A stretch of DNA of 32,000 nt from the NCBI RefSeq assembly GCF_016127575.1, contig NZ_CP066018.1:2100001-2132000 (forward strand), written 5' to 3'. Positions 1 to 4,915 of this stretch are shown here, piece after piece. The position numbers and the translations under genes are program-made. How positions within the stretch are numbered: the stretch's first letter is position 1; every line of letters begins with the position of its first letter. Origin of the DNA: Cupriavidus necator (GTDB taxonomy: Bacteria; Pseudomonadota; Gammaproteobacteria; Burkholderiales; Burkholderiaceae). The notes beneath the pieces were generated by a model. It had not been told where the DNA came from. It saw nothing but the letters and a program-made list of their open reading frames with translations, and did no database searches.

Positions 1-141
1 TCCTCTGGCCTGAACTGATCGAACGGTCGACCTTGGACCAACGGAGATGGCTGCCTTGTGTGAACATCATGGGCGAAGCTTCCGCCCACCGGCGAAATCG
101 TCACGTCCAATCCATACGTTATCGCATCGCGAAACTGGTTC

Positions 142-519
142 CTAGCTTGAATGAACAGCATTCGCTCGACGGAGTAGCCCAGGTTGAAGGGGAACGCCTA
201 TGCGGGGGCCGTAGAGTTGCTTCTTGCGTTGGAACTGCTCGTAATTCATAAGTAAGAGCACCTGCTTGCGAAGGTCCTGCACAGCAACGCTTCGCAACGC
301 GCTGTTCTTCGATTCTTTCCCCTCCTTAATCTTCATCCACTCGTCACACGCACCCAAGAGGGTGCCAAGATGCTGCATACGCCCATCTGCTGTCGGCGGT
401 GGATTGGTCACCCATGTCTCCAGCAGAAAGTCGATTTGCAGTAGCTTCTTCCTGCCTCGAAAGCCAGAAAGCGCAGTCTTACTCTTAAATGCCTCCAGAC
501 TGATCAGGGTGGGTTTCAT
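142..519 (-). CDS. hypothetical protein, no family recognised; 3' end probably disrupted by a frameshift
   Basis: 125-aa ORF in the low-GC left region. After a CCCC run (plus-strand GGGG at 189-192), a second minus-strand frame stays open from 197 to the window edge (FNLGYSVERMLFIQARNQFRDAITYGLDVTISPVGG...). The listed C-terminal tail (GVPLQPGLLRRANAVHSS) looks non-protein-like. Confidence 0.4.
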   Translation of the reverse strand: MKPTLISLEAFKSKTALSGFRGRKKLLQIDFLLETWVTNPPPTADGRMQHLGTLLGACDEWMKIKEGKESKNSALRSVAVQDLRKQVLLLMNYEQFQRKKQLYGPRIGVPLQPGLLRRANAVHSS

Positions 520-662
520 GTGGTGCCTCCTGTAGACTGGAATGATGAGCAGTGCTAGCGCCGGCTTTCGCGCAGCGCTATTGGCTCAGCAAAGGTAGTC
601 CATCATGAGTCCGCGCCAGGCCCTGTGCAATACCTGGAAACTGGTAGTAGTGAATGTACCCA

Positions 663-1064
663 TTACCAGTGAGAGGACCGCAAGGCCGGGGAACAGGAGT
701 CCGATGGCAACAAAAAAAGGTTCTTCGAAGAATTCCGGGGAACGCTGCGCGGATTTTGAGGAAGAAGGCCAACTTGTGCGGCGCTATGCCGCTCAGGAAG
801 CGGACGCGTAACCCGTCGGTCCGTCGCGAGAAACACCGCTACAAACAGGCAGACACCAATGGCGTAGGAGAGAGACGCCCGCAGCCGTTTGCCCGGCCGG
901 CGCAGAAAGACAAAAAGCAAAAGCAACAGACCGATGAGCGCCAATACAGCTGCGCAGAAAACGGTGGTGCCAGCTATCGCAGCTAATGGGCCGGTTGTGG
1001 CTCGTGCGAGTGTAACGGGCGTCCGAGCGGCAATCACCGCGAACGTTATACCCAGCAAGGTCAT
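663..1064 (-). CDS. small hypothetical membrane protein (about 3 predicted TM segments)
   Basis: The N-terminal ~90 aa contain three long hydrophobic stretches (LLGITFAVIAA, AAIAGTTVFCAAVLALIGLLLLLFVFL, LSYAIGVCLFVAVFLA). The C-terminal tail is low-quality sequence, so the true stop and frame are uncertain. Confidence 0.35.
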   Translation of the reverse strand: MTLLGITFAVIAARTPVTLARATTGPLAAIAGTTVFCAAVLALIGLLLLLFVFLRRPGKRLRASLSYAIGVCLFVAVFLATDRRVTRPLPERHSAAQVGLLPQNPRSVPRNSSKNLFLLPSDSCSPALRSSHW

Positions 1065-1275
1065 GGCCGCGGCACATAGAATCCACTAGGCGAACCACCT
1101 TGCTTGCGTTGCGGTTCATCTACCTAAGCCCGTCTATCCCCGTCGTCAAATCGCGCTAGATGGGGGAGGGCACGCAGGAAAAAATGGTTGATGCTGTGCT
1201 ATCCCACGGTACCCCGTCCGGCGCGACCGTTGGATGGAGCCCAAACTCCGTCATGGTGCTACCGCAATTCGTGCG

Positions 1276-1686
1276 TCACGCCGCAGCCACTGAGAACATG
1301 ACTCGAATCACTCTGGTGTCCAAGGCATAGCAGGCAACGGAGGCCACCACGGCTATGCCGGCTACCATCAGCAATGAGCGACGCTGGTCGGGGATGGTCC
1401 AGAGCAAGTATCCCAACGCCCCAAGCCATACCAGCACAAGGATCAGGTCAGCCAGAAGTACCGCAGCTGACACAACGCCCGCATAGCCAACGAACATATC
1501 GTCCCGTGTTGGCGCAGCAACTATGTGAAAGAGGCTTAGCCCGATAGGCGAAGCAGGCAGCAATACGGAAGGCAGCAGGAATAACCAACGCAGAACCATC
1601 ACCTCACACCCCTCCGCTACGATTCGAGCGGCCAACGCCTGCAGCCCATAGATCCCCAAGGGTGAGCCACCGTGCTTGGCCTGCAT
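1276..1686 (-). CDS. small hypothetical polytopic membrane protein
   Basis: ORF with 3-4 hydrophobic helices (LFLLPSVLLPASPIGLSLFHIVAA, GVVSAAVLLADLILVLVWLGALGYLLW, LLMVAGIAVVASVACYAL). The real start may be the internal Met at 1599 (MVLRWLF...). Divergent from the PAAR gene. Confidence 0.5.
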   Translation of the reverse strand: MQAKHGGSPLGIYGLQALAARIVAEGCEVMVLRWLFLLPSVLLPASPIGLSLFHIVAAPTRDDMFVGYAGVVSAAVLLADLILVLVWLGALGYLLWTIPDQRRSLLMVAGIAVVASVACYALDTRVIRVMFSVAAA

Positions 1687-1887
1687 TTCATCCAGATAAA
1701 TCCATCGGCAAAATGATACTGCGCCATTGTCTCCCAGCGCCTGGGGAAAAATCCTGAAAACCAGGGCGATATTTCGCTAACATCTGATTTGAATAATTCA
1801 ATCCGCATTTTTAGGGAAAGACTTATAGATCGAATGACTACCTTCGTTTAGATTCCTCGATTCAAGCTATTTGCTGGGGGACATCCT

Positions 1888-2415
1888 GTGATGAGAAAAG
1901 GCATCATTCGGCAGGGCGACACGACCACGCACGGCGGCGAGGTGTTAGAAGGTATACCGAATTTTAGGATCCACGGCGTACCTGTCGCCGCGGTAGGGCA
2001 TATGGTTTCGTGTCCACAGTGCAAAGGTGCGTTCCCGATCATTGAAGGTGATACGTCTTTTACCGCCTATGGCAAGTCGATCGCACTGCATGGCATGCAT
2101 ACCGCCTGCGGGGCGCAGTTGATTTCGTCAACCAGTGGCTTTGCAAACGTTGAGCACCCGCGCGGGGGAACGGGCTTTGCAAGCGCGGAAGGCGGGATGG
2201 CGCATATCGCAGGTGCATGGGGCAAGAACGACGCGTATGACGACCTGTACGTGCTCCAGGACAGTTCGACCGGAACGCCATTGCCGAATACCGAATATGC
2301 GGTCGTGCGTGAAGGCGCCAGTCCTGAGTTTGGCAAGACCGATGGCCAGGGAAGAACCCATCTGCTGACTTCCACTATGCACGCAGCGGAAGTGACCATT
2401 TACGTAGAGGGGTGA
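1888..2415 (+). CDS. PAAR domain protein (T6SS spike-tip protein) with a ~90-aa C-terminal extension
   Basis: The N-terminal ~85 aa match the classic PAAR pattern: RQGDTTTHGGEVLEG...HGVPVAAVGHMVSCPQC...EGD...YGKSIALHGMHTACGAQLISS. ATG at 1891 follows GTG at 1888, with a GGGGGA Shine-Dalgarno-like run upstream. The extension YVLQDSSTGTPLPNTEYAVVREG...GKTDGQGRTHL...VTIYVEG looks like a small beta-sandwich (TTR/carboxypeptidase-regulatory-like) module. Confidence 0.85.
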   Translation: MMRKGIIRQGDTTTHGGEVLEGIPNFRIHGVPVAAVGHMVSCPQCKGAFPIIEGDTSFTAYGKSIALHGMHTACGAQLISSTSGFANVEHPRGGTGFASAEGGMAHIAGAWGKNDAYDDLYVLQDSSTGTPLPNTEYAVVREGASPEFGKTDGQGRTHLLTSTMHAAEVTIYVEG

Positions 2416-2419
2416 TTGA

Positions 2420-2983
2420 ATGTCGAGCGCGCTTGTTTCCCCATCTGGCAAGACTTTGATTCCTGTCGCCAGGCGCACGACAACGCCAACGCCAGCGAAT
2501 GCACCTAAACCGGTTCCCGTGGAGCGGGAATATTTGGAAGTGCTCATCTTCGATAAGCTACCTCGTCCGGCCTCGGCATTCGGTCATGCTGCAATTGGGA
2601 TTGATGGGACCGTCTATAGCCGCGCACATGAAAAGTACTTCAAGGGCTCGCTTACGGAATACCTGAGAAGCAATACGCAAGGGGTGAAGCGCGATGTTGT
2701 TGGTCTGTACCTATGGGTGTCGCCACGCGAAAGGAGGATCGTTCAGGACGAATTAGAGAGACGAGTGGTCGAAGACGAGAAGTACAGCGTGTTCAGTAAT
2801 TCGTGTAGCTCCAACGTCGCGGACGTTCTCGAGTTGGTCGGTATCATGGCGCACGATCCACGCTACTTCCCGACGCCGGTATCCCCGGCCGATCTGTTGG
2901 CGGTGCTATCGAAATCTAACCGGCTTGTTGAACGCCGATTCTATGGAAAGGGTTACGAAGGTGGCGCCTCCGGCAATTGGTAG
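2420..2983 (+). CDS. putative T6SS effector; permuted papain-like (NlpC/P60-LRAT-YaeF-PPPDE type, His before Cys) hydrolase candidate
   Basis: Starts 4 nt after the PAAR stop, behind GAGGGG. A Pro/Thr-rich N-terminal linker is followed by FGHAAIGIDGTVYS (His56, nt 2585-2587) and YSVFSNSCSSNVADVLELVG (Cys129, nt 2804-2806). This resembles the H...NC motif order of circularly permuted papain-fold enzymes. The function is inferred, not proven. Confidence 0.55.
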   Translation: MSSALVSPSGKTLIPVARRTTTPTPANAPKPVPVEREYLEVLIFDKLPRPASAFGHAAIGIDGTVYSRAHEKYFKGSLTEYLRSNTQGVKRDVVGLYLWVSPRERRIVQDELERRVVEDEKYSVFSNSCSSNVADVLELVGIMAHDPRYFPTPVSPADLLAVLSKSNRLVERRFYGKGYEGGASGNW

Positions 2984-3293
2984 GAAATCAGTCGTTGCTC
3001 TAGGTGTGTCGGGGTTGGCGTTCGCGCTGCTTTACGCATGGTGGAGCGGTTGTAGTATCGACCTGCTAGGGCGAACCACCGTCGCACCCGTACCCCTGCA
3101 CGAAGAGCCGCTAGACGTGTTCAAACGGCAAGGGCCTTTCAGCGGTACCGTTCCATCAGGCACCTTCTGCAGGTTGATTCAAGTTGAAACAAAGGGCTTG
3201 GTTTCGTTTCGGGTCAGGTGCGGGAGCCTTGAGGGATGGACGGACGAAGCCCAATCTTTCGACCCGCCGCTAGGCGTTGGTCTGTTCGGTTGA
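2943..3293 (+). CDS. putative cognate immunity protein (N-terminal hydrophobic or signal segment)
   Basis: ORF immediately after, or overlapping, the effector candidate. Possible starts are TTG 2925, ATG 2943 and GTG 3006. The hydrophobic N-terminus VVALGVSGLAFALLYAWWSGCS is followed by a small soluble domain. Its position fits effector-immunity gene order. Confidence 0.4.
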   Translation: MERVTKVAPPAIGRKSVVALGVSGLAFALLYAWWSGCSIDLLGRTTVAPVPLHEEPLDVFKRQGPFSGTVPSGTFCRLIQVETKGLVSFRVRCGSLEGWTDEAQSFDPPLGVGLFG

Positions 3294-3329
3294 AAGAAGG
3301 CCCGGTCACCCTGATCTGGGCCTCAAAAG

Positions 3330-3867
3330 TTGGACATGCAACTCTTAGGGTGTCCCATGTACAGATACAGCGCGGCCAAGATCGCAGCCCGTGTGTTTAT
3401 CCCAGTGTCGCTGTTGGCTGCTGGACTCCTGGCTGCGTTCCTATACCCCTTTCATCTGTCGGACGAGAACACAGCAATCGATGTCATACACATGCAGTAT
3501 GCCTGCGGAGAGTGCCACGTACAGTATCGAGTGCTAAAGGCTGGCGGCGCGAATGGCCAGACACACGCCCGAACGTTCGGCAACGAGAGCGGTGCCCCCA
3601 TGCGGTTTTATCGGATGGGATGTCGTCGTACTGTACAAGGGGTCTGACCAACCGCTCCTCAAGTATCGGAATTCCAGCGCTGTGTCTGCCGAGGATTGCG
3701 CAAGTCCAGTGCTTCGCCTGAGGGGGCAATTCAAACGTAAGCTGATCTACACGTTTCTATATTCCGGAGACCGGTACGACGGCACATATTTTGATGCGCA
3801 AACCGCTTCCATTGCGCCGCAGGACCCCCATGGCTGTAAGGCGCCTGGCGGGGCATCGATTCGATAG
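3330..3867 (+). pseudogene. hypothetical membrane-anchored protein split over two frames (frameshift or two overlapping small ORFs); contains a CXXCH motif
   Basis: Frame 1 (3330..3647) has a TM anchor (VFIPVSLLAAGLLAAFLY) and YACGECHVQYRV, then degenerates. Frame 2 (open from about 3536 to 3867) becomes protein-like at GFIGWDVVVLYKGSDQPLLKY...LIYTFLYSGDRYDGTYFDAQ. A CCCCC run at 3594-3598 lies in the switch zone. Confidence 0.35.
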
Positions 3868-3976
3868 CCGTCCTTGCTCGCGAGGTTACGTGGGAAATCC
3901 ATAATTGTCTGCGTCGTTCAATAAGTGGAGAATCGCCATTGCCCCCGCCACGCCGCCCACCTAAGCGCCGACCACC

Positions 3977-4915
3977 GTGACGTCCACCGCCCCCCCACGC
4001 ACCCCCCGCCTGCACTTCGACCTCACCACCGTCCAGCTCTTCATCGCCGTATCCGACTTCGGCAGCATCACCCGCGGCGCCGAGCGCCTCCACCTGGCCC
4101 CCGCAGCCGCCTCCCGCCGCATCCTCGAACTGGAAGCCCAACTAGGCGTCTCCCTCTTCGAACGCCTGCCCCACGGCATGGCCCTGACCGAAGCCGGCCG
4201 CGCACTACTGGCCCACGCCCGCGGCATCACCCACACCGTCCAGCGCATGCAGGACGACGCTGCCTCCTTTGTCGGCGGCGACCTGGGCGTGGTCCGGGTA
4301 GCCGCGCCCAAATCCGCAGTCATCCAGTTCCTCCCCTTCGACATCCAACGCTGCGCCACGGCCTGCCCCGGCGTGCGCATCGACCTGCAGGAAATGAACA
4401 GCGCGGAAGTCCAGCAGTCGCTGCGCCGCGGCACCGTGGACATCGGCATTTACGACGGCAGCCTGGGCGTGATCGACCTGCCGACCGCGCCCTATCGGAA
4501 TGATGAACTGGTGCTGGTGGTGGCGCGCGGCCATGCGCTGGCGCGGCGCCGCAAGGTCACGCCGGACGACGTGCTGGACTGCGACCTGATCGTGCTCAGC
4601 GAGAGTTCGGCGATCTCGATCGTGCTGGAGCGGCTGGCGGAGGAGGCCGGCCGCGTGCTGCGCATGCGCATGCGCGTGGGCGGTTTCGACAGCATGGCTG
4701 CGCTGGTGGCGCAGAACCTGGGCGGCGGGGTGATGCCGGAGGCGATCGCGCGCGAGGTGGCGGCCGGCAGCCGCTTTGTGCGGCTGCCCATTGCGGCGCC
4801 CTGGGCGCAGCGGCAGTTTGTGCTGTGTCATCGGCCCCATGGGGCACTTTCCTCGGCGGCGCTCAGCGTGCTGGCGGTGCTTGCGCAAAACGCGAAACCA
4901 GAATCCCCCAATTAG
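3977..4915 (+). CDS. LysR family transcriptional regulator
   Basis: N-terminal wHTH LTTVQLFIAVSDFGSITRGAERLHLAPAAASRRILELEAQLGVSLFERLPHGMALTEAG, followed by an LTTR-like substrate-binding domain. High-GC codon usage. Confidence 0.9.
   Translation: MTSTAPPRTPRLHFDLTTVQLFIAVSDFGSITRGAERLHLAPAAASRRILELEAQLGVSLFERLPHGMALTEAGRALLAHARGITHTVQRMQDDAASFVGGDLGVVRVAAPKSAVIQFLPFDIQRCATACPGVRIDLQEMNSAEVQQSLRRGTVDIGIYDGSLGVIDLPTAPYRNDELVLVVARGHALARRRKVTPDDVLDCDLIVLSESSAISIVLERLAEEAGRVLRMRMRVGGFDSMAALVAQNLGGGVMPEAIAREVAAGSRFVRLPIAAPWAQRQFVLCHRPHGALSSAALSVLAVLAQNAKPESPN

Follow-up and report, generated by a model that had tools for sequence, protein, structure and literature searches.

Three tightly packed open reading frames (ORFs), all on the + strand, lie near the start of a 32,000-nucleotide (nt) stretch of the Cupriavidus necator genome (contig NZ_CP066018.1, positions 2,100,001 to 2,132,000; hereafter the window), and encode a PAAR protein, a 187-amino-acid (aa) effector, and a 116-aa candidate immunity protein. 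We are highly confident that this locus is an effector-immunity cassette. It is also likely that the cassette as a whole is an orphan unit of a type VI secretion system (T6SS), in which the effector would be loaded on a transthyretin-like (TTR) domain of the PAAR protein and would attack lipids in the periplasm of a target cell. Taken by itself, the identity of the substrate as a lipid is somewhat favored.

A reading of the DNA made before any database search (the original prediction) had proposed a clear PAAR protein, then, after a 4-nt gap, a 187-aa protein with a Pro/Thr-rich N-terminus, and an adjoining small protein with an N-terminal hydrophobic segment, all co-directional and tightly packed, and had taken them for a spike-tip cargo effector with exported immunity. 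Each of these elements was found on the + strand, and the interpretation is backed by PAAR and RHS fusions within the effector family, by a TseH-like fold, by synteny across Betaproteobacteria, and by the topology of the immunity candidate. The features are as follows, with positions counted from the first nucleotide of the window.

1891 to 2415, + strand: PAAR spike-tip protein, 174 aa from ATG, with PAAR_motif at aa 9-80.
2230 to 2415, + strand: TTR-like domain at the PAAR C-terminus, ~aa 115-175, the proposed docking site of the effector.
2420 to 2527, + strand: N-terminal segment of the effector, ~36 aa, consensus SPxGKxL..VA.RTTTP...K, a putative docking tag or linker for the PAAR TTR-like domain.
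[quoted passage not shown]
2585 to 2587 and 2804 to 2806, + strand: predicted catalytic residues His56 and Cys129, respectively, invariant in the family alignment.
2943 to 3293, + strand: immunity candidate, 116 aa, with an anchor helix at aa 16-35 and a beta-rich putative periplasmic domain.

The PAAR protein and the effector

The PAAR ORF opens at a GTG at position 1888 (175 aa), and public records start the gene at the ATG at 1891 (174 aa). Its product scores 91.8 bits (E 3e-26) over aa 9-80 for the Pfam family PAAR_motif (PF05488), where the cut-off is 27, matches the T6SS PAAR structure 8gra in a sequence search of the PDB, and shows neither a signal peptide nor a hydrophobic segment by hydropathy. 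The effector ORF (2420-2983) begins after a gap of 4 nt (2416-2419) and overlaps the third ORF by 41 nt, and a Shine-Dalgarno-like sequence, GAGGGG, is found 8 nt before its start, inside the end of the PAAR gene. A scan for promoters and terminators was uninformative. Behind its Pro/Thr-rich N-terminus, the effector likewise shows no signal peptide and no hydrophobic or membrane segment by hydropathy.

The effector was modeled by AlphaFold2 with a predicted local distance difference test (pLDDT) score of 84 and a predicted template modeling (pTM) score of 0.74. A Foldseek search with this model returned a single significant PDB match, the Vibrio cholerae effector TseH (6v98; E 1e-4, probability 1.0, template modeling (TM) score 0.53), and the next, weak matches were human PPPDE1 and DUF862, a fold class that the original prediction had guessed. 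Because His precedes Cys in the sequence and the fold matches are of the TseH/PPPDE type, the modeled effector is assigned to the circularly permuted NlpC/P60 (papain-like) enzymes. The opposite order, Cys before His, is that of the canonical Tae-type NlpC/P60 amidases and is not found here, as His56 precedes Cys129. Across 51 diverse domains, no variation was seen at G55, H56, C129, or P156, and almost none at Y81, R91, or Y122. The toxin profile had no match among PDB sequences, TseH included, and in Pfam the effector reaches Lnb_N/DUF4105 (PF13387) at 21.7 bits, below the gathering cut-off of 22.2, over aa 73-142 only. T6SS core genes are missing from the window, and so, as had been noted earlier, are VgrG, Hcp, adaptors, and Rhs; however, the accompanying statement that it holds no known toxin domain is not quite accurate in view of this Lnb_N/DUF4105 match just under the threshold.

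The family to which the effector belongs is broad and is repeatedly joined to delivery modules. A database search yielded 99 homologs in Cupriavidus, Chromobacterium, Burkholderia, Paraburkholderia, Trinickia, Collimonas, Herbaspirillum, and others, of which several with a length of ~300 aa are PAAR fusions, and an exhaustive search with a hidden Markov model (HMM) yielded 196 cluster representatives at 50% identity, of which 47 reached E<=1e-30. Fusions of the catalytic domain were seen with PAAR (P0015, P0018, P0066, P0069, P0083, P0116, and P0291) and with RHS C-termini (P0131, P0175, and P0233). Distant members include proteins named 'RHS repeat-associated' in their source, and in several distant sequences the domain starts right after the DPxGL motif that marks the end of the Rhs core. 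When 51 family members were compared with Pfam, Lnb_N was matched by 29 (E<0.01), Peptidase_C97 by three, and DUF6695 by none, and some relatives carry PG_binding_1 at the N-terminus (P0111, E 5e-8; P0078, 22.6 bits). In Acidovorax, Delftia, and Achromobacter (L014, L021, L029, and L031; P0078 and P0111), a PG_binding_1-like N-terminal domain replaces the PAAR partner.

Synteny was assessed in 34 related loci obtained from a scan of species-representative genomes, all of which belong to Betaproteobacteria wherever the record gives a lineage. In 21 of these loci, the toxin start is preceded, at a distance of a few bases, by the end of a homologous PAAR gene, and three further loci are flanked by decayed remnants of a PAAR C-terminus. 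Degraded loci are also present in the set (L007, L022, L028, L033, and L037). No vgrG or other T6SS gene was found upstream of the related cassettes among 10 large upstream ORFs in 10 loci, and the cassettes are therefore regarded as orphan. Variation on the PAAR side was seen in Paraburkholderia adhaesiva (L030, 6759-7980), where two tandem PAAR-TTR genes precede the toxin, and in two loci with an additional short PAAR-like ORF upstream (L013 and L017).

Beyond the PAAR motif, a C-terminal domain of ~60 aa is common to all 21 aligned PAAR proteins, with Y137, D152, G155, T157, and G175 invariant. When a profile built from the full-length aligned PAAR proteins (A5) was compared with the PDB, positions 118-162 and 107-157, in its C-terminal part, matched TTR domains in Pseudomonas aeruginosa VgrG2b (6h56, E 4e-5) and enteroaggregative Escherichia coli (EAEC) VgrG1 (6sjl, E 5e-4). 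The TTR domain of EAEC VgrG1 is reported to load the Tle1 lipase. The cassette thus resembles TTR loading on VgrG (EAEC VgrG1-TTR/Tle1 and VgrG2b) through the profile match of the PAAR C-terminal domain, and it further resembles the VgrG1/Tle1 pair in that a cargo predicted here to target lipids is encoded beside the spike gene. It differs in that the TTR domain is carried by PAAR and not by VgrG, and in that both the interaction and the role of an N-terminal tag are deduced here from co-occurrence only.

This putative tag consists of the first ~36 aa of the effector. The segment is conserved in stand-alone toxins only: it is present in 21 of the 21 loci with an upstream TTR-bearing PAAR, and proteins in which PAAR or PG_binding_1 is joined directly to the catalytic domain lack it. 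Since the segment co-occurs with TTR-bearing PAAR proteins and is lost in fusions, we infer that it may dock on the PAAR TTR-like domain.

The immunity candidate

The third ORF starts at the ATG at 2943, with a first possible TTG at 2925 and an alternative GTG at 2961, and it was left uncalled in all four NCBI records inspected; it was found only in Logan assemblies (P0302, 99% identity). Hydropathy shows one hydrophobic segment, at aa 16-35. In 32 of the 34 related loci, the stop of the toxin gene is overlapped by a small ORF or has one that begins at most ~20 nt away. Moreover, a paralogous toxin of another C. necator strain (P0008, 64% identical) is followed by a called gene of 110 aa, and the product of that gene is 39% identical to that of the third ORF of the window (E 3e-22). 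Given the synteny across 21 loci, the small ORFs in 32 of 34, the invariant residues, and the identity to a called gene, we conclude on sequence grounds that the three ORFs of the cassette are not chance ORFs.

The downstream ORFs are of two unrelated kinds, which we call type A and type B. Type A, which includes the window gene, comprises proteins of ~90-116 aa whose N-terminus is either a lipoprotein signal or an anchor and whose putative periplasmic domain bears the motif G[DE]xC...C..GxGW. In an alignment of 21 type-A ORFs (that of the window and 20 others), C76, C93, G98, and W99 are invariant. Type-A genes can occur in tandem, with up to three copies in Cupriavidus (L005 and L006), and the toxin versions with a PG_binding_1-like domain in Acidovorax, Delftia, and Achromobacter still precede a type-A lipoprotein gene. 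Type B is a 93-aa protein with three hydrophobic segments from Burkholderia, Paraburkholderia, and Trinickia. The toxins at type-B loci (L012, L013, L015, L017-L019, L022, and L033) carry an insert of 15-20 residues before the Cys motif. Because these insert-bearing toxins pair with the unrelated type B, one toxin family appears to have two immunity solutions.

The immunity candidate of the window matched no Pfam family, and a database search with the immunity alignment recovered 12 proteins, all of them 'hypothetical protein' or unnamed. A WSGC motif had suggested a lipoprotein, and this reading was dropped when the Cys was found to be Arg in the closest homologs (P0303 and P0304). Since that Cys is not conserved, the segment at aa 16-35 is read as a signal anchor. 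A signal-anchor helix followed by two invariant cysteines would be consistent with a periplasmic domain.

Target of the effector

[quoted passage not shown] According to the same study, the Tox-Act1 clade is the sister of DUF4105/Lnb and has members fused to or beside modules of type V or type VI secretion systems, and the permuted core characterizes the lipid-acting LRAT, YiiX, DUF4105, and Tox-Act1 clades, with a lipid-metabolism gene context for DUF4105 (PMC12994826). TseH falls in a separate clade of that tree and has phospholipase activity under some conditions, and the Pfam column of the Tox-Act1 homolog list contains DUF4105, Peptidase_C97, or nothing (PMC12994826). Neither Cupriavidus nor Burkholderia is mentioned in the available part of the text of this source.

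The effector of the window resembles Tox-Act1 in several respects. Each is a small toxin that is associated with the T6SS and has a His...Cys pair in a permuted NlpC/P60 core, and in both cases the immunity gene, a candidate one here, lies directly downstream. In both, the Pfam signal is weak or absent save for DUF4105 or Peptidase_C97, and both clades have members fused to PAAR, RHS, or other delivery modules. Among the published homologs is a 189-aa Massilia protein (570-nt entry) situated between a PAAR gene and a small ORF, as in the window. However, the spacing from His to Cys is 108 residues in Tox-Act1 and 73 in the window effector. Sequence comparison was made with two listed plasmid-borne homologs, and the broad family HMM (A3) aligned the whole catalytic core to the Pseudanabaena Rhs C-terminus at 29.7 bits and the Cys motif only to the Aeromonas caviae homolog at 20.3 bits. 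A database search with the broad alignment recovered close relatives alone, and three cluster look-ups shared no accession with the tables of PMC12994826 and yielded just further 'RHS repeat-associated' names. The A. caviae homolog is followed by a polytopic membrane ORF with two long hydrophobic segments, with which type-B immunity proteins share no similarity. Because the relation to the listed homologs is remote, the window protein is filed as part of a distinct Betaproteobacterial subfamily, and from these sequence comparisons its place in the Tox-Act1 clade is probable but not proven.

Two further families invite comparison. TseH, with its partner TsiH (6v98, DUF6695), is likewise a T6SS effector with a permuted papain-like fold and gave the sole significant structural match, but the resemblance does not extend to sequence, as DUF6695 is matched by 0 of the 51 family members. 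Lnb (DUF4105, PF13387), a Bacteroides lipoprotein N-acyltransferase, is the best Pfam match and also has a permuted NlpC/P60 catalytic core. However, the window protein scores below the threshold and has no export signal or membrane region, and the lipid-metabolism context of Lnb contrasts with the conflict-system context of PAAR and immunity neighbors seen here. The kind of effector that the cassette encodes has already been published in 2024-2026, and the original prediction of an undescribed effector needs amendment, given that the superfamily is described as the Tox-Act1 clade (PMC12994826). Three aspects are without counterpart in the sources that we searched: the immunity family of type A, the putative tag for docking on TTR, and the lack of annotation.

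From these comparisons, we propose the following course of events. The PAAR protein would cap a VgrG spike encoded elsewhere in the genome, and its TTR-like C-terminal domain would hold the 187-aa effector, probably via the ~36-residue N-terminal segment. The T6SS would fire the effector into the periplasm of a neighboring Gram-negative cell, where the permuted NlpC/P60 domain (His56/Cys129) may cleave or transfer fatty-acyl ester linkages of phospholipids, and possibly of lipoproteins, with lysolipids and lysis as the result, as shown for Salmonella Tox-Act1. The overlapping downstream gene would provide the cognate immunity protein, which would be held in the inner membrane through a single helix and expose to the periplasm a small, probably disulfide-bonded beta domain that may block the incoming or sister-cell toxin by direct binding.

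Several points weigh against this proposal. The evidence for the locus is computational throughout. The sequence comparison with the Tox-Act1 clade covered two listed homologs, and the homology is remote, as the close-family HMM scored both listed homologs at 8-9 bits only and hhalign gave 69% probability over 29 columns. Imm-Act1 is a two-helix membrane protein and the window candidate has one anchor and a putative periplasmic Cys-Cys beta domain. The AlphaFold2 model of that candidate, one helix followed by beta strands, is poor (pLDDT 54). There is debate over the substrate of TseH, whose structure is the closest one solved, and the PG_binding_1 domain of some relatives may indicate the cell wall over lipids. 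Finally, as neither the window cassette nor the 10 other loci scanned have a neighboring vgrG or adaptor gene, T6SS dependence is deduced from the PAAR protein only.

It is conceivable that delivery by PAAR and the T6SS and periplasmic immunity operate as proposed and that the target is peptidoglycan, so that the effector would be a Tae-like cell-wall amidase or peptidase. The catalytic domain is within the NlpC/P60 superfamily, a subset of relatives (P0111 and P0078) carries the N-terminal PG_binding_1 domain, a soluble periplasmic immunity domain would resemble the Tai/Tsi type, and TseH is said to have been first proposed as a cell-wall hydrolase. However, the sequence matches of the family go to Lnb_N, a lipoprotein N-acyltransferase domain, and a membrane site of action is in keeping with the three-helix type-B partner of the toxins from Burkholderia, Paraburkholderia, and Trinickia. 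The permuted core is, moreover, typical of lipid-acting clades, and the sacculus remains intact after lysis by Tox-Act1 (PMC12994826). We therefore consider a peptidoglycan target unlikely and retain an attack on lipids as the preferred reading.

Genomic setting and significance

The effector is 100% identical to a protein of C. necator H16, the same protein occurs on 124 contigs, and the locus maps to H16 chromosome 1 at ~3.45-3.47 Mb. Positions 1-4000 of the window have a GC content of 52-59%, compared with ~67% for the remainder, and the cassette lies within a horizontally acquired low-GC island of C. necator H16. The rest of the window contains LysR regulators, TctC binding proteins, a coenzyme A (CoA)-transferase, a TonB receptor, and other metabolic genes. 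C. necator H16 is reported to carry one T6SS of type i (T6SSi) (bioRxiv 10.64898/2026.04.04.716520; PMC8356804), and the objection that the genome has no T6SS thus does not hold.

A second PAAR cassette is located ~2.4-4 kb upstream of window position 1 in divergent orientation (L001, 3505-5189, - strand). It encodes, in order, a 184-aa PAAR whose C-terminus carries the same TTR-like domain, an alpha/beta-hydrolase of 231 aa that has a GYSYG motif and Thioesterase/Abhydrolase matches, and a 127-aa membrane protein. The N-terminus of the hydrolase, LKTVNVRLTPVSDREPVKV, bears a loose likeness to the N-terminal tag of the toxin, judged without statistics. Within the window, an uncalled ORF of 133 aa with two hydrophobic segments (663-1064, - strand) is 74% identical to the 127-aa membrane protein that ends the second cassette (E 9e-51), and by this similarity it looks like an orphan copy of an immunity gene.

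Other neighbors were also recorded. A 125-aa ORF (142-519, - strand) corresponds to the end of a gene that encodes 395 aa in other C. necator strains (L002 and L004, 6913-8100) and is split into 276 and 125 aa in two of four records (L001 and L003); the protein matched no Pfam family. The cassette is flanked by a 136-aa ORF with three hydrophobic segments that is called by gene finders (1276-1686, - strand) and by an uncalled 96-aa ORF with one hydrophobic segment (3357-3647, + strand), and neither has homologs among the 34 related loci or a Pfam match. In strain GCA_051903405.1 (L002, 11094-12371), an insertion sequence (IS) element of the Transposase_mut type lies between the immunity gene and the LysR gene, which corresponds to a position just after window 3293-3976. 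In strain GCA_051903315.1, at the locus of a paralogous toxin (L042), an IS605 OrfB is found at the expected PAAR site, with DUF4123 and VasX_N genes 6 kb away.

Some of these features could be read as signs of a silent or decaying orphan cassette, with genes that are intact but no longer deployed by the sole T6SS of H16, and with at most the immunity function kept. The locus is unlinked to vgrG, one of the neighboring genes is split in H16, positions 663-1064 hold an uncalled ORF that looks like an orphan immunity copy, an IS element lies beside the cassette in another strain, and several related loci are degraded. Nevertheless, none of the three window ORFs is disrupted, the effector retains its catalytic His and Cys and the immunity candidate its invariant cysteines, the genes are tightly coupled (4-nt gap and 41-nt overlap), and an identical effector occurs on 124 contigs, all of which make a relic very unlikely. 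Still less credible is a housekeeping Lnb-like lipoprotein or lipid acyltransferase that serves the cell's own envelope and adjoins PAAR by coincidence, as suggested by the NCBI and UniRef names ('DUF4105 / Lnb domain-containing protein') and the weak Lnb_N match, since that match is under the Pfam cut-off and covers aa 73-142 only, the effector has no signal peptide or membrane segment, the lipid-metabolism gene context of the DUF4105 type is absent from the locus, PAAR adjacency recurs in 21 loci alongside direct PAAR and RHS fusions, and the low-GC island is shared with a second PAAR cassette. An orphan PAAR-effector-immunity cassette of the T6SS remains the interpretation that we favor.

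A more far-reaching idea, which we hold to be doubtful, is that the Betaproteobacterial subfamily is a functionally distinct branch, for example, of lipoprotein or envelope-lipid acyltransferases, with two unrelated immunities (one of them periplasmic and disulfide-bonded) and a transferable PAAR-TTR docking tag. If this is true, the N-terminal tag would be a general cargo signal of the T6SS, and the neighboring alpha/beta-hydrolase effector may carry a similar tag.

The present analysis corrects the public annotation of a much-used industrial organism, in which the name 'DUF4105/Lnb domain protein' most likely stands for an interbacterial toxin and a probable antidote gene has been left unannotated. 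It would extend the recently described lipid toxins of the Tox-Act1 type to soil Betaproteobacteria, and it suggests that one toxin family can be paired with at least two unrelated immunity families. The PAAR TTR-like domain together with the ~36-residue tag may, in addition, offer a compact system for the study of how PAAR-TTR proteins pick up their cargo.

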